Below, one piece after another: positions 2,346 through 45,251 of a stretch of DNA of 45,251 nt. Each line of letters begins with the position of its first letter. The first letter of the stretch is position 1. The notes under the pieces are model-generated. The model was not told the DNA's origin. It saw only the letters and a list, made by a program, of their open reading frames with translations, and made no database searches. Both the position numbers and the translations under genes were made by a program. The DNA is from Escherichia phage K1E. The stretch is from the sequence record NC_007637.1; one strand, written 5' to 3'.

Positions 2346-2672
2346 ATGGAACGCAATGCTAACGCTTACTACAATCTTCTGGCTGCAACTGTTGAAGCAT
2401 TCAACGAGCGCATTCAGTACGATGAGATCCGCGAAGGTGATGATTACTCTGATGCACTACATGAGGTTGTAGACAGCAATGTTCCAGTTTATTACAGCGA
2501 AATCTTTACTGTGATGGCTGCTGATGGCATTGATATTGAATTTGAGGATGCAGGTTTGATTCCTGATACGAAGGATGTAACCAAGATTCTACAAGCTCGC
2601 ATCTATGAGTCTCTTTATAATGATGTACCAAATGATAGTGATGTAGTTTGGTATGAAGACGAGGAAGAATAA
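2346..2672 (+). CDS. Ocr-like acidic protein (candidate DNA-mimic anti-restriction protein, 108 aa)
   Basis: Very acidic protein. The stretch IQYDEIREGDDYSDALHEVVDSNVPVYYSEIFTVMAADGIDIEFEDAGLIPDTKDVTKILQARIYESL closely parallels T7 gp0.3 (Ocr) as I remember it; needs alignment to confirm. Confidence 0.6.
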   Translation: MERNANAYYNLLAATVEAFNERIQYDEIREGDDYSDALHEVVDSNVPVYYSEIFTVMAADGIDIEFEDAGLIPDTKDVTKILQARIYESLYNDVPNDSDVVWYEDEEE

Positions 2673-2674
2673 AG

Positions 2675-2788
2675 ATGGAAAGGCAATATAACTTCATCTT
2701 CTCAGACGGTGTAACCCTGAAATGTTCCTTACGATTTGCGCAGATTCGTGAGGAAGTGCTAGGTACTACATACAAACTATTTAGCTGA
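2675..2788 (+). CDS. Hypothetical small protein (37 aa)
   Basis: ATG 2675 just after the upstream stop; weak evidence; its 3' end overlaps a promoter-like sequence. Confidence 0.2.
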   Translation: MERQYNFIFSDGVTLKCSLRFAQIREEVLGTTYKLFS

Positions 2789-2801
2789 CACTATAAGAGA
2801 A
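2779..2801 (+). promoter_or_regulatory. Weak SP6-type phage promoter-like sequence
   Basis: ATTTAGCTGACACTATAAGAG: two mismatches to the consensus, including A instead of G at +1. Confidence 0.35.
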
Positions 2802-2864
2802 GGCTTAACAAGGCGTTGCTACGGTAGCGCCTGATTAAACTTTCACTTACTAGGAGTTAAGACT

Positions 2865-3092
2865 ATGGATTTAGATAGCATCATTATGGCATTTGCTCTT
2901 ATTGGCTTAAGCTGGTGCTCCTATCACCTTTACCGTGAGTTCTTATTTGATAAAGCTAAACGCAAACTAAGAAAGGAAGGCGGTAACTACCTCTGTGTAA
3001 GAGGCGGTTTAGTCGAATATATTGCACCTAACGGCACGGAATGCGCCATTAACAAAGATGCATTTATAGAAACGTGGCATTACATCAAGTAA
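2865..3092 (+). CDS. Hypothetical small membrane protein (75 aa)
   Basis: ATG 2865 with TAGGAG upstream; hydrophobic N-terminal segment IIMAFALIGLSWCSY. Confidence 0.45.
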   Translation: MDLDSIIMAFALIGLSWCSYHLYREFLFDKAKRKLRKEGGNYLCVRGGLVEYIAPNGTECAINKDAFIETWHYIK

Positions 3093-3155
3093 CTAGCCTA
3101 TAGCCTGCCTGTGTGGGCTATGTGATATTTACTTACACTATATAAGGTGACTATT

Positions 3156-4040
3156 ATGACTACTGAAAACACCCTTCTGTCTGTTCGTGAAGCTGCAACC
3201 GCTGAAATCAAGCAGCACTTAGACAATATCGGCACTTCTTACATCAAAGTTGGCGCTTGTCTGAATGAATTACGCGGTGATTTCGAAGGTCAAAAAGACT
3301 TTTTAGCTTATGTAGAATCAGAGTTCGGCATCAAGAAGGCACAATGCTACAAGCTGATGAGTGTAGCCCGTGTCTTTGAAGGAGACGAACGCTTTAAAGG
3401 TGTGGCTATGCGTGTAATGCTGGCGCTTGTTCCTTTCGCTGATGAAAATATAATCATGGAGAAGGCCGCAGAACTCGCCGCAGATGGCAAGCTGGACACT
3501 AACGCCGTAAACGCCCTGATTGAGACTAAGAAAGAGATAAAGGCCGAAACGGTACAATCTAAGGCTGAGGCAGTAAAACCGCAGGAGAACGCGACTGAGG
3601 CCGCAGAATCACAGGAAATGCAAGCGCCGCAGGTAGTGCCACCCGCGAGCGAGCAGGAGGCCGACGAATCAGCACCATGGGAAGAGGAAAGCAAGCCGGA
3701 AGCGCCAAAGGCAGCGCCGCTGGATAACACGGCTAATACCGAAAACGCCGCTATGGCTAGCCTCTTAGCACAAATTAAGGCACTGACTGAGCAATTACAG
3801 GCAGCTAATGACCGCATCGCCTCCTTAAGTAGCGCACGCGAAAGCAAGAAGGCAGCCGCACCTATGCTGCCGCAATTCAAATCTTCCTGCTTCTATGCTC
3901 GCTTAGGGTTAAGCGCTGAGGAGGCAACGAAGAAAACAGCAGTTAACAAGGCGCGCCGCGAACTGGTTAAGCTAGGCTACGGTGAAGGACATGAAGCATG
4001 GCCCTTAATCTCTGAGGCAGTAGAAGAGTTGACTAAGTAA
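3156..4040 (+). CDS. Hypothetical early protein (294 aa) with acidic Pro/Glu/Ala-rich linker
   Basis: Track ORF starts at GTG 3147; first ATG is 3156 with AAGGTGA upstream. GC-rich low-complexity middle (about 3540..3720); sits immediately upstream of the RNA polymerase gene. Confidence 0.55.
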   Translation: MTTENTLLSVREAATAEIKQHLDNIGTSYIKVGACLNELRGDFEGQKDFLAYVESEFGIKKAQCYKLMSVARVFEGDERFKGVAMRVMLALVPFADENIIMEKAAELAADGKLDTNAVNALIETKKEIKAETVQSKAEAVKPQENATEAAESQEMQAPQVVPPASEQEADESAPWEEESKPEAPKAAPLDNTANTENAAMASLLAQIKALTEQLQAANDRIASLSSARESKKAAAPMLPQFKSSCFYARLGLSAEEATKKTAVNKARRELVKLGYGEGHEAWPLISEAVEELTK

Positions 4041-16766: not shown

Positions 16767-17704
16767 TAGATGCTGATATGTTACCCTACATCGTAGGTTA
16801 TACAATCAGTGACATGACTTATTTACGAGCCACAACTCGTGTTAAGTCAGGACAAGTCCCATCAATCAAAGATACACCTGAGTGTAAGCAAGCATGTGAC
16901 CGTGTGAACTCCTTGCTTAACTCTTGGGTGTATGCAGCAGAGTGTGATGCAGCTAAGCTATTCATGACGAAATCAGAAGCTAACTTCCGTGTCCGCCTAG
17001 CATTCACAAAGCCTTATAAGGGTCAACGTAAGACCGAGAAGCCTCCGTTCTTCTATGAATTGCGAGAGCATCTCTTAGAGGTTCACGGTGCAATCTTGGC
17101 AGATGGTGAGGAAGCTGATGACCTCATGAGCATCGCACAATGGGATAGCCACCGCCGCTTCCAGCAAGATACAGGTAACGAGTTCGCTATCGGTAGTCCA
17201 GAGCATAAAGCATTCTCTGATACTTGCATCGTTTCCTTAGATAAGGATTTGATGATTGTTCCCGGTTGGCATCTACAGCCGGGTCAAGAGAAGAAGTGGG
17301 TAGAGCCTATGGGCTGGCTTGAGCTACGCCGTAAGGTTAATGGGCAAGTCAAAGATCTAAAAGGTGCTGGCCTCATGTTCCACTATGCACAGATGATTAT
17401 CGGTGATGATATTGATAACTATGCTGGCATACCAGGTCGTGGTGCTAAATATGCCTATGATCTTCTCAAAGATTGTAAGACAGAGAAAGAGTTGTACATG
17501 GCAGTGCTGGGTGCTTACAAGGCTAAGTTCGGGCATGGACAAGTTAAAATTAAGAATTACCGAGGTGGTTATCGTATCGGCAAAGCCTTTGACCTAATGC
17601 TTGAGTGTGGTCGCTTAGCTCACATGGCAAGATTCAAGGGTGATATATGGCGAGCCGATAAGAACCCAATCTTGTGGGGAGATGAAGGATGGCTACAAAG
17701 TTAA
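16679..17704 (+). CDS. 5'-3' exonuclease (FEN/T7 gp6-like, 341 aa)
   Basis: Track ORF starts at GTG 16670; first ATG is 16679 with AGGAG upstream; acidic active-site stretch ALIDADMLPYIVGY; lies in the replication module. Confidence 0.7.
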   Translation: MRPNFDFGATVSEDNNLILWPTEGNRIALIDADMLPYIVGYTISDMTYLRATTRVKSGQVPSIKDTPECKQACDRVNSLLNSWVYAAECDAAKLFMTKSEANFRVRLAFTKPYKGQRKTEKPPFFYELREHLLEVHGAILADGEEADDLMSIAQWDSHRRFQQDTGNEFAIGSPEHKAFSDTCIVSLDKDLMIVPGWHLQPGQEKKWVEPMGWLELRRKVNGQVKDLKGAGLMFHYAQMIIGDDIDNYAGIPGRGAKYAYDLLKDCKTEKELYMAVLGAYKAKFGHGQVKIKNYRGGYRIGKAFDLMLECGRLAHMARFKGDIWRADKNPILWGDEGWLQS

Positions 17705-37107: not shown

Positions 37108-37390
37108 ACATGCAGCTACAGAAGATGAGGTTGGCATCCTGCATGGTGCTATTACCAAAATCTTTAATAAGAAAGCACAGGCAATACTGGACACTATAGA
37201 AGAAGACCCAGATGCAGCACTGCATTTAGTCTCTGGTAAAGACATTGGAGCTATGTGTAAGTGGGTTCTTGATAATGGTATTACCGCTACACCTGCTGCA
37301 CAGCAGGAGGAGTCCAAGCTATCTAAGCGCCTCAAGGCTATCCGAGAGGCATCAAGTGGCAAGATTATTCAATTCACTAAGGAGGATTGA
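37091..37390 (+). CDS. Putative terminase small subunit (99 aa from GTG start)
   Basis: Track ORF starts at TTG 37046 inside the holin gene; proposed start is GTG 37091 with GGAGG 7 nt upstream; position matches T7 gene 18. Confidence 0.45.
   Translation: MSVHNKHAATEDEVGILHGAITKIFNKKAQAILDTIEEDPDAALHLVSGKDIGAMCKWVLDNGITATPAAQQEESKLSKRLKAIREASSGKIIQFTKED
37182..37204 (+). promoter_or_regulatory. Weak SP6-type promoter-like sequence inside coding sequence (+1 G at 37199)
   Basis: CAATACTGGACACTATAGAAGAA; perfect core with mismatches at -17 to -15. Confidence 0.4.
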
Positions 37391-38556
37391 TGGCTAAGGC
37401 AAGAGAATCACAAGCGGAGGCTCTTGCCAGATGGGAGATGCTACAGGAGTTACAGCAGACCTTTCCTTACACAGCGGAAGGTTTGCTTCTCTTTGCAGAC
37501 ACAGTTATTCATAACTTAATTGCAGGCAACCCTCATCTGATTCGTATGCAGGCTGATATCTTGAAGTTCCTATTCTACGGACACAAGTATCGCCTCATCG
37601 AAGCGCCTCGTGGTATCGCTAAGACAACACTATCAGCAATCTATACAGTATTCCGTATCATTCATGAACCGCATAAGCGTATCATGGTTGTATCCCAAAA
37701 CGCCAAGCGAGCAGAGGAAATCGCAGGTTGGGTAGTTAAAATCTTCCGTGGCCTAGACTTTCTTGAGTTTATGCTACCGGACATCTACGCAGGGGACCGT
37801 GCCTCAGTTAAGGCATTTGAGATTCATTACACCCTACGTGGCAGTGACAAGTCGCCTTCTGTGTCTTGTTACTCAATCGAAGCAGGTATGCAGGGTGCGC
37901 GTGCAGATATCATCCTAGCAGATGACGTTGAGTCAATGCAGAATGCTCGTACAGCGGCAGGACGTGCCTTGCTTGAGGAACTGACCAAGGAGTTTGAATC
38001 TATTAACCAGTTTGGTGATATTATCTACCTTGGTACTCCTCAGAACGTAAACTCTATCTACAATAACCTACCTGCTCGTGGTTACTCTGTTCGTATCTGG
38101 ACTGCACGTTATCCCTCAGTGGAGCAGGAGCAATGCTATGGTGACTTCCTTGCACCTATGATTGTGCAGGATATGAAGGACAACCCAGCACTTCGCTCAG
38201 GGTATGGCTTGGATGGCAATAGTGGTGCCCCTTGTGCACCTGAAATGTATGATGATGATGTGCTGATTGAGAAGGAAATCTCGCAGGGTGCGGCTAAGTT
38301 CCAGCTTCAGTTCATGCTTAACACTCGCATGATGGATGCTGACCGCTATCCGCTACGCCTGAACAACCTCATCTTCACTTCATTCGGTACAGAGGAAGTC
38401 CCTGTGATGCCTACGTGGAGCAATGATTCCATCAATATTATTGGCGATGCACCGAAGTATGGCAATAAGCCTACAGACTTCATGTATCGACCTGTGGCTC
38501 GCCCGTATGAATGGGGCGCTGTCACTCGTAAGATTATGTATATTGACCCTGCTGGT
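37390..38556 (+). CDS. Terminase large subunit, exon 1 (389 codons)
   Basis: ATG 37390 with AAGGAGG upstream; Walker A-like PRGIAKTT and Walker B ADIILADDVE; similarity to T7 gp19 stops at ...IDPAG, where an insertion begins. Confidence 0.85.
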
Positions 38557-39311
38557 AAACACCTCTGCCAGCGTAAAACCCTCTTAATTCGGTGGAACTC
38601 TCACTGAGACAATACCGAGCGAAGCCTGTTGCAATAACAGGAACGTGTAGAGACTAACTGTAAGGCCAAGCGGTCTGAAACAGAGGGAGGCGCAAGCCTA
38701 AGATATAGTCCGACCTACTAGGTGACTAGTAGAAGTTAAAGTAGCGAATTAACGTAACAATTGAAGGGAGTTAAATATGACAGAGCATAAAGTTTATCAT
38801 ATTCGTGTTGTTGGTGAAACTGATGTAATGCAAGGTTATATTGGTGTAACCTCCGATATTAAGAAGCGTATGAGAGAGCACAAGTGTGCAGGCCGTCTTT
38901 GTGATGGCCGCGAGTACGTTATCTTATTCACTGGTAGCAAAGAAGAGTGTTATGCACTAGAAGAGAAGCTACGCCCACATGACAACATGGGTTGGAATAA
39001 GGGTAAAGGTGGTTATCGCAAAGCAGGTAACATCGAGAAAGGTGAACGCATAAGTATTGCCACTGAAATCAAGAAAGGACAGCACTTGTCTGTTGCCACT
39101 GAGTTCAAGAAAGGCATGACACCTTACAACAAAGGTACTGGCAAAGATTACATATTCACTTCTCCAGATGGTGAAGAGTTTCTTGTAACTTGCATTACTG
39201 ACTTCTGTAAAGAGCACAACCTAACACCTCAGAATATGCGTAAGGTGGCACGTGGTTTACGTAAACACCACAAGGGTTGGCTCGCACGTCACGTTCAAAC
39301 CGGGAGGTAAG
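38557..39311 (+). mobile_element. Group I intron (candidate, self-splicing) carrying a homing endonuclease gene
   Basis: Conserved elements in canonical order: P AATTCGGTGGAA (38586..38597), Q AATACCGAGC (38611..38620), R GTAGAGACTAACTG (38647..38660), S AAGATATAGTCC (38700..38711). P1 pairing of exon GCTGGT (38551..38556) with GCCAGC (38567..38572). The 3' boundary is uncertain: G39311 or G39302. Confidence 0.75.
38777..39310 (+). CDS. GIY-YIG homing endonuclease (I-TevI-like, 177 aa) encoded within the intron
   Basis: AAGGGAG RBS; N-terminal KVYHIRVV...GYIGVTSDIKKRMREH (GIY-YIG with conserved Arg/Glu); central repeated GERISIATEIKKG / HLSVATEFKKG units; basic C-terminal DNA-binding-like region. 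Confidence 0.8.
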   Translation: MTEHKVYHIRVVGETDVMQGYIGVTSDIKKRMREHKCAGRLCDGREYVILFTGSKEECYALEEKLRPHDNMGWNKGKGGYRKAGNIEKGERISIATEIKKGQHLSVATEFKKGMTPYNKGTGKDYIFTSPDGEEFLVTCITDFCKEHNLTPQNMRKVARGLRKHHKGWLARHVQTGR

Positions 39312-40034
39312 AATGGGGATGAAACGGGTGTGGCTATCGTCTTCCTGCACGGCACATTCATTTATGTGTATCAGTGCTTTGGTGTGCCGGGAGGATACCG
39401 CGAATCGTCCCTGAATCGCATTGTGCAGGCCGCAAAGCAGGCAGGTGTTAAAGAGGTATTCATTGAAAAGAACTTTGGTCATGGCGCGTTTGAGGCCGTT
39501 ATAAAGCCATACTTTGAACGAGAGTGGCCTGTGACTCTGGAGGAAGATTACGCCACCGGACAGAAAGAGTTGCGTATCATTGAAACACTAGAGCCACTAA
39601 TGGCGGCCCACAGGCTCATCTTCAACGCAGAGATGGTCAAGTCTGATTTTGAGTCGGTACAGCACTATCCGCTTGAGCTACGCATGTCATACAGCCTTTT
39701 CAATCAAATGTCGAACATCACGATTGAGAAGAACAGCCTACGACACGATGACCGCTTAGACGCTCTGTATGGCGCTATACGGCAATTAACTTCTCAGATA
39801 GACTATGACGAGGTTACACGGATTAATCGCCTCAGAGCGCAGGAGATGCGCGATTACATCCATGCTATGAACACACCTCACCTCCGTAGGGCAATGCTCT
39901 ATGGAGATTATGGCACTGAGCGAAGAGTAACCAACACTTCCGTGGCTATGCAGCAAAGAGTATACGGTCAGAATTACAGGAGTAAATCGGCAAGCAGAAA
40001 TACACTTTCTGCAAGGATTTCAAGGACTTATTAA
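39312..40034 (+). CDS. Terminase large subunit, exon 2 (240 codons; may instead begin at 39303)
   Basis: NGDETGVAIVFLHG...EKNFGHGAFEAV...QKELRIIETLEPLMAAHRLIFN...HDDRLDAL parallels the C-terminal nuclease domain of T7 gp19. Confidence 0.85.
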   Translation, partial: NGDETGVAIVFLHGTFIYVYQCFGVPGGYRESSLNRIVQAAKQAGVKEVFIEKNFGHGAFEAVIKPYFEREWPVTLEEDYATGQKELRIIETLEPLMAAHRLIFNAEMVKSDFESVQHYPLELRMSYSLFNQMSNITIEKNSLRHDDRLDALYGAIRQLTSQIDYDEVTRINRLRAQEMRDYIHAMNTPHLRRAMLYGDYGTERRVTNTSVAMQQRVYGQNYRSKSASRNTLSARISRTY

Positions 40035-40055
40035 TTACCGGACACTATAGAAGGA
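40033..40055 (+). promoter_or_regulatory. SP6-type phage promoter (+1 G at 40050)
   Basis: AATTACCGGACACTATAGAAGGA; followed by an AT/purine-rich leader that shares AGGTTATATAGGTATT with the 6847..6986 region. Confidence 0.75.
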
Positions 40056-40198
40056 AGGCCCAGATAATAAGAGAAATAACAAGGATAATATAGGTTAACC
40101 TAGGTTATATAGGTATTCCTTAGTATGGGTGTACTCCTGTACACCCTATTCCTTACTTCCTTACTATACTTACATAATAGGAGAGAGAGAGAGAGAGA

Positions 40199-40477
40199 AT
40201 GTCTAATAGTTATAGTACACAACCTCTTACAGGTAAGTCTGCTCGTAAGCAGATACAACCTGTTAGTGAAGCCCTTATGCTTCCTGTAGTTTACGAGGAC
40301 ACTGTTGAGAAGAAAGGTGATGTTATTAATGATGCCACCAAATCAGGTAAGCAGAAAGGGGCCATGGTGTGTCTTGATACACATGATAACCTGGTTATTG
40401 CTATCGCAGTTGATGGCAAAGAAGATTCCAATTGGTTGACAGCTAATAAAGCGGTCACTACTATTACCCCAGCTTAA
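40199..40477 (+). CDS. Hypothetical protein (92 aa), paralog of the next gene
   Basis: ATG 40199 preceded by AGGA plus a (GA)9 run; shares SGKQKGAMV and overall layout with the 40490 product. Confidence 0.55.
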   Translation: MSNSYSTQPLTGKSARKQIQPVSEALMLPVVYEDTVEKKGDVINDATKSGKQKGAMVCLDTHDNLVIAIAVDGKEDSNWLTANKAVTTITPA

Positions 40478-44963: not shown

Positions 44964-45251
44964 TCTCGCCCTCGCCCTCGCCGGATTTTCCCCATATGGG
45001 GCCGCGCTGCGGTTGGCTTGGGGATTGGGCTAGGCTGGGCCGTCTTCAACCTGCTGCCGCAGGAAGCTCGATGGGTTGGCTGAGGGTTGCCGAGGGCTGC
45101 GCTTAGTGGTACACAAGTAGAACGCCTAGGAAGCGCTAGGGCACGCCTTAGTGTTGGACAAGGTGATTGCCTTAGTGCAACCGTTTAGGGCTTACACAGG
45201 CCGTTTTAGGGCAATTCCTGAGTGTTTGACAGGGTGTGAGGGTGTGGGCTA
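44964..45251. repeat. Right direct terminal repeat (288 bp)
   Basis: Copy of 1..288 running to the last base of the window; matched by eye over the visible stretches. Confidence 0.85.

Follow-up and report, generated by a model that had tools for sequence, protein, structure and literature searches.

Sequence record NC_007637.1, the full linear genome of Escherichia phage K1E, is the window analyzed here; it comprises 45251 nucleotides (nt) with direct terminal repeats of 288 nt (1-288 and 44964-45251) and is 99% identical to the Vectrevirus phages vB_EcoP_C, D and R. Its gene encoding the large subunit of terminase (TerL), terL or gene 40, is interrupted by a group I intron with an open reading frame (ORF) for a putative homing endonuclease, gp40.5. 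The initial annotation had noticed that the similarity to TerL breaks off at ...IDPAG (T38556) and is taken up again some 0.75 kb further downstream, in a different frame, and had proposed that a group I intron with a GIY-YIG homing endonuclease splits the gene. The alignment with intron-less alleles agrees with the former, and a covariance-model match, covariation, the restoration of TerL and the N-terminal fold of the endonuclease bear out the latter. The locus is made up as follows.

37390..40034, plus strand: terL gene span, 2645 nt including the intron.
37390..38556, plus strand: terL exon 1, with the ATPase domain and strand one of the nuclease domain; it ends in ...MYIDPAG and is Gp40A (CAJ29449.1).
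38557..39302, plus strand: group I intron, 746 nt, predicted IA type with a P7.1 insertion.
38605..38607, plus strand: UGA stop in the frame of exon 1, 17 codons into the intron and within P5.
38777..39310, plus strand: homing endonuclease gene gp40.5, 177 amino acids, with an N-terminal GIY-YIG domain, NUMOD3-like repeats and a C-terminal I-HmuI-type DNA-binding domain.
39302, plus strand: omegaG, the final nucleotide of the intron, with the junction set by intron-less alleles.
39303..40034, plus strand: terL exon 2, with the remaining RNase H-like nuclease domain and the C terminus, starting with GGAGGUAAGAAU (GGKN).

Exon 1 of K1E is colinear with the intron-less gp40 of phage K1-5 and with terL of a second GenBank genome named K1E (KY435490) up to T38556, and homology is back at G39303. 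The gene spans 2645 nt in K1E but 1899 nt in these two phages; since the intron-less alleles are exactly 746 nt shorter, the intron is assigned to 38557..39302. At the junction K1-5 reads GCGGGT followed by GGTGGTAAGAAC and KY435490 reads GCGGGT followed by GGCGGTAAGAAC; in K1E the intron stands between GCTGGT and GGAGGTAAGAAT. Excision gives a TerL of 632 residues (...MYIDPAG-GGKNGDETG..., with the peptide ...MYIDPAGGGKNGDETG... across the ligated exons) that is 99.5% and 99.8% identical to the proteins of K1-5 and KY435490, respectively. The RNase H-like domain of T7 terminase, PF22530, is unbroken on this protein (residues 385-494, profile positions 1-108, 121.9 bits), and exon 2 alone matches it at 1e-32 from profile position 5 onward. 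Identical boundaries were seen in eight phage isolates and seven metagenomic lineages. The alignment thus fixes the junction at 38556/39303, which the initial annotation had only weakly favored, as splicing after G39302; its first choice, an intron ending at 39311 with the junction 38556/39312, is 9 nt off and would leave TerL three residues short (IDPAG-NGDETG), and this junction has no P10. An early in-frame stop such as the UGA in P5 is typical of phage group I introns (PMC3073962).

The insert has the features expected of a ribozyme. RF00028 (group I intron) is the sole Rfam family that reaches its gathering score in the 45 kb genome, and it matches 38525..38732 over the full model (1-253) with 63.6 bits and E 5.8e-14, against a gathering score of 50 bits. 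Nine of twelve homologous introns scanned at or near the terL site are also above this threshold, with homologues scoring 50.6-64.3 bits. Cores from phages of E. coli, Klebsiella, Salmonella, Lelliottia, Vibrio, Pseudomonas, Bacillus and Staphylococcus were collected into an alignment of 12 sequences, from which RNAalifold independently predicts P1, P3, P4, P5, P6/P6a, the P7.1 hairpin and P9. P7 was put in as a pseudoknot for the pairing test, and partners slid by one to three columns served as controls. In this test 95.3% of the pair-cells are canonical versus 30-42% after sliding, 30 of 48 pairs have compensatory double changes and none of 500 shuffles attains the observed pairing score. 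Covariation is strong in P1, P3-P6a, P7.1a, P9 and P9.1; P9 and P9.1 are paired in 97% of the cells versus 16-45% in the slid controls. The initial annotation had paired R (GACUA, 38652-56) and S (UAGUC, 38706-10) into P7, and indeed both strands are unchanged in the 12 related introns, which is neutral as to covariation. The same helices are obtained from the minimum free energy (MFE) fold of the single K1E sequence (z = -3.05).

38579..38753, plus strand: ribozyme core, from covariation and MFE.
38579-84/38682-87, plus strand: P3.
38589-94/38613-18, plus strand: P4.
38599-602/38606-09, plus strand: P5.
38619-21/38646-48, plus strand: P6.
38625-30/38636-41, plus strand: P6a.
38652-56/38706-10, plus strand: P7 (R/S).
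38663-67/38672-76, plus strand: P7.1a.
38689-98, plus strand: P8.
38715-21/38726-32, plus strand: P9.
38735-53, plus strand: P9.1.

There is no obvious P2 in the K1E intron. The insertion 38657-38681, between the 5′ strand of P7 and the 3′ strand of P3, contains the hairpin P7.1a, in which five of five pairs are compensatory. The nearest relatives outside terL, TMP-IVS1/2 of Bacillus cereus, were classed as IA2 by their authors (PMC2504315), and from its predicted helices the K1E core is of IA type, with a P7.1 insertion. In the region 38735-38758 the stem of P9.1 covaries freely, but conservation of its loop (U-A-A/G-C-G-A) and of the GUAAC that comes next extends from E. coli to Staphylococcus phage introns, a pattern that suggests a tertiary contact. 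At least 120 contigs of IMG/VR contain an 18-nt motif of the core, GACAATACCGAGCGAAGC; among the matches listed 6 are at the terL IDPAG site and 114 elsewhere.

The predicted ribozyme is fitted to both exon ends by two pairings.

38551..38572, plus strand: P1 hairpin, exon GCUGGU (38551-56) with GCCAGC (38567-72) of the internal guide sequence; RNAalifold.
38561..38566, plus strand: 5′ part of the internal guide sequence, ACCUCU (P10 strand), complementary to GGAGGU (39303-08) and abutting the P1 strand.

P1 had been proposed from the start as 6 bp with a U.G pair at the splice site. RNAalifold and covariation agree with this: U38556.G38567 is the wobble at the 5′ splice site, and five of the six pairs are compensatory. 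P10 had been given as 5 bp; the pairing holds, but it is 6 bp long, 38561-66 with 39303-08, the first six nucleotides of exon 2. Seven metagenomic lineages found via endonuclease homologs, together with Pseudomonas phage PA28, served as natural compensatory tests. P1 keeps pairing as GCGGGU/GCUCGC (lineages L017 and L018), GCGGGU/GCCCGC (L019), GCCGGU/GCCGGC (L022) and AACGGU/GCCGUU (PA28), and P10 has the compensatory variants ACCACU/GGUGGU (L020) and AUCACU/GGUGAU (PA28). A terminal G, at the position of omegaG, is present in all 11 lineages. All intron-plus alleles of the K1E type have T at -4 and A at +3, which complete P1 and P10; in alleles without the intron, position -4 is occupied by G or A and position +3 by T or C. 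As judged from these pairings, ACCUCU-GCCAGC is a canonical, contiguous P10/P1 guide.

None of the public records annotates an intron: each of the 10 intron-bearing records with annotation has two terminase coding sequences, entered separately, plus the endonuclease. Split genes caused by free-standing homing endonuclease genes do occur in other phages, and the locus could be read in this way, with the endonuclease as a free-standing cassette and TerL assembled in trans from two polypeptides, gp40A and gp40B. However, the insert contains a group I ribozyme that is complete, shows covariation and fits both exon ends through P1 and P10, and the start of exon 2 has neither an in-frame start codon nor a ribosome-binding site. 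The annotated starts of the second half are mutually inconsistent, being a GTG at 39252 inside the endonuclease ORF (vB_EcoP_C) or lying 27 to 45 nt into exon 2 (ULIP33, phD2B). Moreover, the break falls within the first RNase H-like strand: exon 1 holds PF22530 positions 1-4 and exon 2 positions 5-108. An intact terminase nuclease domain is presumably required by K1E and by the 13 other isolates that form plaques. We regard two polypeptides as extremely improbable.

The ORF at 38777..39310 is intact and its product exactly matches CAJ29450.1/YP_425019.1, gp40.5 (coding part 38777..39307). By inspection, a Shine-Dalgarno-like sequence lies upstream of its AUG, and AAGGAG-like motifs stand at the equivalent place in the phages VEN and PA28 and the metagenomic lineages L016, L019 and L020.

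38763..38770, plus strand: Shine-Dalgarno-like GAAGGGAG.

A set of 5.8 billion proteins contains 26 full-length homologs of gp40.5 (39-98% identity) and one partial match. Invariant in 28 homologs are V6 Y7 H8, G20 Y21 G23, R31, H35, E62 and N74; the catalytic residues presumably correspond to Y6/Y17/R27/E75/N90 of I-TevI. The GIY-YIG family PF01541 is matched by 20 of the 28 relatives at E≤0.01 (best 5.6e-6), PF22083, the I-HmuI NUMOD-like domain, by 23 of the 28, and the N-terminal, catalytic domain of gp40.5 has the alpha/beta fold of GIY-YIG nucleases, as in I-TevI. There was no match in NCBIfam, and PHROGs matched only the DNA-binding module, under the label 'HNH endonuclease', which misleads as to the catalytic domain. 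Taken together, domain and fold predictions make gp40.5 a GIY-YIG nuclease joined to an I-HmuI-type DNA-binding module. The architecture of I-TevI as a whole protein, with a linker zinc finger and a C-terminal helix-turn-helix, is absent, so that 'I-TevI-like', as the ORF had been called, is apt for the catalytic domain but not for the DNA-binding domain. Against the copies of ULIP33, PST_H2, P433.1 and phD2B the ratio of nonsynonymous to synonymous substitution rates (dN/dS) is 0.05-0.14, and gp40.5 is therefore under purifying selection. No paralog of the intron or of the endonuclease gene was found elsewhere in the K1E genome; a weak tblastn match at 17159-17263 was rejected as chance and lies inside an ORF of 344 amino acids, which we take to be a phage exonuclease like T7 gp6.

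The distribution of the intron is patchy. The insert is carried by 14 of 119 matching phage records; about 100 relatives are cleanly without it, and in most of the others the alignment falls into two parts that meet precisely at the junction. The introns of the Klebsiella and Salmonella carriers are 98.8% (cp4), 96% (VR702, Kpp-61) and 95% (PST_H2, SE29) identical to that of K1E, but their terL exons only 83-84%. The identity changes at the splice sites, because the 50 nt of exon flanking the intron are just 66% and 86% identical in these phages. vB_EcoP_C, which has the intron, and its intron-less sibling from the same collection, vB_EcoP_B, differ at -52, -46, -40, -34, -28, -25, -16, -4, +3, +12, +31 and +84, and beyond this region next at -205 and +438. 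By its pattern this is a short co-conversion patch, and it is denser upstream, as would be expected with a break in exon 1. The intron-less KY435490 (44246 bp) differs from our K1E at 5 of the first 700 nt of exon 2, and exon 1 is about 90% identical; the two 'K1E' sequences are thus mosaics that switch ancestry at the intron site.

Related introns lie at this site or close to it in phages of other subfamilies. Vibrio phage VEN (Colwellvirinae) has a related intron and a homologous endonuclease at the same codon boundary, and Pseudomonas phage PA28 (Slopekvirinae, 2492-3286) has a related intron with a GIY-YIG gene two codons downstream, at IDPAGNG-GDEVS. The P1 (AACGGU/GCCGUU) and P10 (AUCACU/GGUGAU) of PA28 are tuned to its own site, and its endonuclease stop is 18 nt inside the intron. 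All seven metagenomic endonuclease homologs whose contigs were inspected, out of the 26 found, sit between an N-terminal half of terL and a C-terminal half with PF22530. On one of these contigs (L019, 1-192) an ORF with an HNH_3 domain lies just upstream of the N-terminal half of terL, giving two different nuclease genes in that terminase region. Presence or absence in siblings, the contrast between intron and exon identity across host genera and the short co-conversion tracts all indicate homing.

Many group I introns of bacteria and phages have lost the function of their homing endonuclease (PMC2504315), and the K1E intron could be a relic of this kind, competent in splicing but immobile, with an inactive endonuclease and with inheritance that is vertical or by ordinary recombination. 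Decay does happen in some copies. In Klebsiella phage cp4 the otherwise invariant GYIG has the exchange G20C, and there are six amino-acid changes for eight nucleotide differences (dN/dS ~0.8); this endonuclease may be decaying or inactivated within an intact ribozyme. In K1E, however, the ORF is unbroken and none of the invariant catalytic residues is missing, and the low dN/dS against the four related copies speaks against decay. Also against a relic, near-identical introns are found in exons that have diverged by 16-17% across phages of E. coli, Klebsiella and Salmonella, the identity changes abruptly at the splice sites, and a co-conversion patch separates the siblings vB_EcoP_B and vB_EcoP_C. 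An immobile relic is, in our view, very unlikely.

In sum, we consider it highly probable that terL of K1E is interrupted after the IDPAG codons by a mobile group I intron that carries a homing endonuclease; splicing, cleavage activity and the cleavage site are what we infer from the comparisons described above. Several observations weigh against this interpretation. With respect to the ribozyme, the RF00028 alignment of P1/P2 is poor and P1 was set by hand and RNAalifold. Inspection of 11 lineages did not identify P9.0, nor was a conserved long-range pairing between the segment after P9.1 and the 3′ end of the intron found among them; the 3′ splice site is about 550 nt beyond P9.1, and a contact that docks it to the core was not found. 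The frame of exon 1 enters the ribozyme for 17 codons, which is longer than in most phage introns, and ribosomes could therefore disturb ribozyme folding. With respect to the nuclease, K1E gp40.5 scores 21.1 bits on PF01541, under the gathering cut-off of 22.6, and when the PDB was searched by sequence profile and with Foldseek, matches were limited to the C-terminal domain. Finally, the searchable literature yielded no RNA-level evidence of splicing and no splicing or cleavage experiment for the K1E intron.

The end of the endonuclease ORF has a feature for which no earlier description was found. The initial annotation had its stop codon abut an intron end at G39311, but the stop (UAA, 39308-10) is inside exon 2, with the last 8 nt of the ORF lying beyond the 3′ splice site: the exon codons GGA GGU AAG are read as G-GG AGG UAA. 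Hence, the ORF reads through omegaG and the P10 strand before stopping. The stop is at +6..+8 in K1E, phD2B, VEN and the lineages L016, L017 (here UAG), L018, L020 and L021. In L022 exon 2 is GGUGCUAAU, so that the ORF continues to a stop at +12..+14, and only in L019 and PA28 is the stop inside the intron. About 24 of the 28 endonuclease proteins end in an exon-encoded ...G-R/W, and the exon-supplied stop, seen in as many family members, is the ancestral-looking state. 'Core creep' has been put forward for ORFs of phage introns (PMC3073962), and the borrowed stop would extend this idea into the exon. A literature search for a homing-endonuclease ORF that enters the downstream exon of a phage intron found none, which is absence of evidence only.

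Since the stop lies in exon 2, the excised intron would carry a non-stop ORF. It is tempting to speculate, although we are rather doubtful of it, that translation of the endonuclease and ligation of the exons are mutually exclusive for each RNA molecule and form a built-in switch that limits nuclease dosage, which goes beyond 'core creep'. If so, complete endonuclease would be made only from unspliced precursor RNA, the excised intron would be a non-stop message for which tagging by transfer-messenger RNA (tmRNA) is expected, and a ribosome that ends translation 6 nt beyond the 3′ splice site would mask P10 and omegaG.

The pathway we propose is as follows. The phage RNA polymerase would transcribe terL within a late terS-terL message, in which the 5′ 200 nt of the intron would adopt the compact fold of an IA-type ribozyme, comprising P1, P3-P9.1 and the P7.1 insertion, and the internal guide ACCUCU-GCCAGC would pair with both exon ends to form P10 and P1. 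Guanosine would attack after U38556, omegaG39302 would then dock, and exon ligation (...GCUGGU-GGAGGU...) would restore the TerL of 632 amino acids. The 3′ three-quarters of the intron, past P9.1, is an ORF with its own ribosome-binding site, which encodes the modular endonuclease. In a mixed infection this enzyme would be expected to cut intron-less terL near IDPAG-GG, and when the cut is repaired on the intron-plus genome as template, the intron would be copied in together with short co-converted flanks.

The source of the message was sought with a position weight matrix (PWM) built from the promoters of the K1E genome itself, which has about 12 SP6-type promoters with the consensus ATTTACTGGACACTATAGAAGA / GGATTTACTGGACACTATAGAAGA.

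37180..37203, plus strand: phage RNA polymerase promoter upstream of terS/terL, PWM score 32, probable source of the pre-mRNA.
40031-40054: promoter immediately after terL; a terminator-like hairpin comes next, at 40127-40146.
9340, 10188, 13923, 14692, 15930, 19095, 24429, 37180, 40031 and 41715: starts of the SP6-type promoters (24-nt sites).
2777, 6822 and 7006: weaker SP6-type sites.

The terS-terL unit is flanked by the promoters 37180-37203, which is inside an ORF upstream of terS/terL, and 40031-40054. Inside the intron there is no phage-type promoter (best PWM score 2.9 versus ≥27 at real sites), and sigma-70 promoters or terminators were not found there beyond chance. With flanking promoters and none in the intron, the message for the endonuclease must therefore be either the terL precursor or the excised intron. 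The P9 hairpin was considered as an internal SP6-type promoter, because CTACTAGGTGACTAGTAGAAG resembles TAGGTGACACTATAGAAG, and was rejected on the PWM scores. Further downstream, a (GA)9 run at 40181-40198 is the ribosome-binding region directly upstream of the ATG of the ORF 40199..40477.

The initial annotation had suspected that this terminase intron might be unrecorded. This is not the case: the intron and homing endonuclease in gene 40 of K1E are already on record, in silico. The K1E record itself names Gp40A (CAJ29449.1) and gp40.5. Tourasse & Kolsto 2008 (PMC2504315) list 'Enterobacterial phage K1E (large terminase)' in their Table 3 among phage-borne group I introns resembling TMP-IVS1/2. 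For Nowicki et al. 2014 (PMC4246154), terL of phD2B consists of exons parted by an intron that bears a homing endonuclease gene, an arrangement they also point out in K1E. These sources deal with the same element, without its structure, the exact splice junction, the endonuclease family or splicing data. Terminases are among the typical targets of phage introns according to a 2014 review. As a discovery, the intron adds little, terminase genes being recognized targets of introns and inteins, and because it was already known in silico we rate its interest as low to moderate. What remains novel is the exon-borrowed stop codon, which offers a simple case in which a coupling of splicing with endonuclease expression could be tested. 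There is also a practical side. About 12 genomes of therapeutic-candidate phages of E. coli K1, Klebsiella K1 and Salmonella annotate terL as two 'terminase' coding sequences, and the exact junction (...GCTGGT-GGAGGT...) allows the annotation to be corrected with a joined coding sequence. Finally, the intron is a clean natural example of recent transfer between host genera among Molineuxvirinae, with related copies in VEN (Colwellvirinae) and PA28 (Slopekvirinae) that occupy this codon or lie beside it and whose guide sequence is re-tuned to each exon.

Among known systems, the closest in the ribozyme are the prophage introns TMP-IVS1 and TMP-IVS2 of the B. cereus group (IA2) and the introns of Twort-like Staphylococcus phages. 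Their cores are homologous to that of K1E by blastn and align with it helix for helix, they share the P7.1 insertion and the P9.1 loop UAACGA, and they supply much of the covariation. However, they reside in other host genes (tape measure, DNA polymerase or, in phiSA_BS1, a different position of terL), most are without an ORF or have HNH genes, and their P1 and P10 fit other sites. The T4 td intron with I-TevI has its ORF in the loop of P6, with the 3′ end overlapping P6a/P7, whereas the ORF of K1E follows P9.1 and overlaps omegaG, P10 and exon 2; I-TevI binds with a zinc finger and a helix-turn-helix, gp40.5 with an I-HmuI-type domain (PF22083), and the K1E intron differs from td in that no internal promoter was found. 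In its layout K1E comes close to the T4 nrdD (sunY) intron with I-TevII, for which a remote 3′ splice junction was reportedly described by Michel et al. in 1992. We take both to have a 5′ ribozyme core and an ORF before a distant 3′ splice site, with P10 and omegaG defining the junction; sunY presumably differs in having a non-coding 3′-terminal domain after the ORF, which K1E lacks, as coding runs through the splice site. In T7-like phages, group I introns are said to have been found in the DNA polymerase genes of PhiI/W31 by Bonocora & Shub in 2004. Cyanophage Pf-WMP3 also has a group I intron in its DNA polymerase gene (PMC3428280). Like K1E, these are podoviruses of the Autographiviridae type with a group I intron and a homing endonuclease, but in PhiI/W31 and Pf-WMP3 the host gene is that of DNA polymerase and the enzymes are HNH nicking enzymes, whereas K1E combines terL with a GIY-YIG nuclease.

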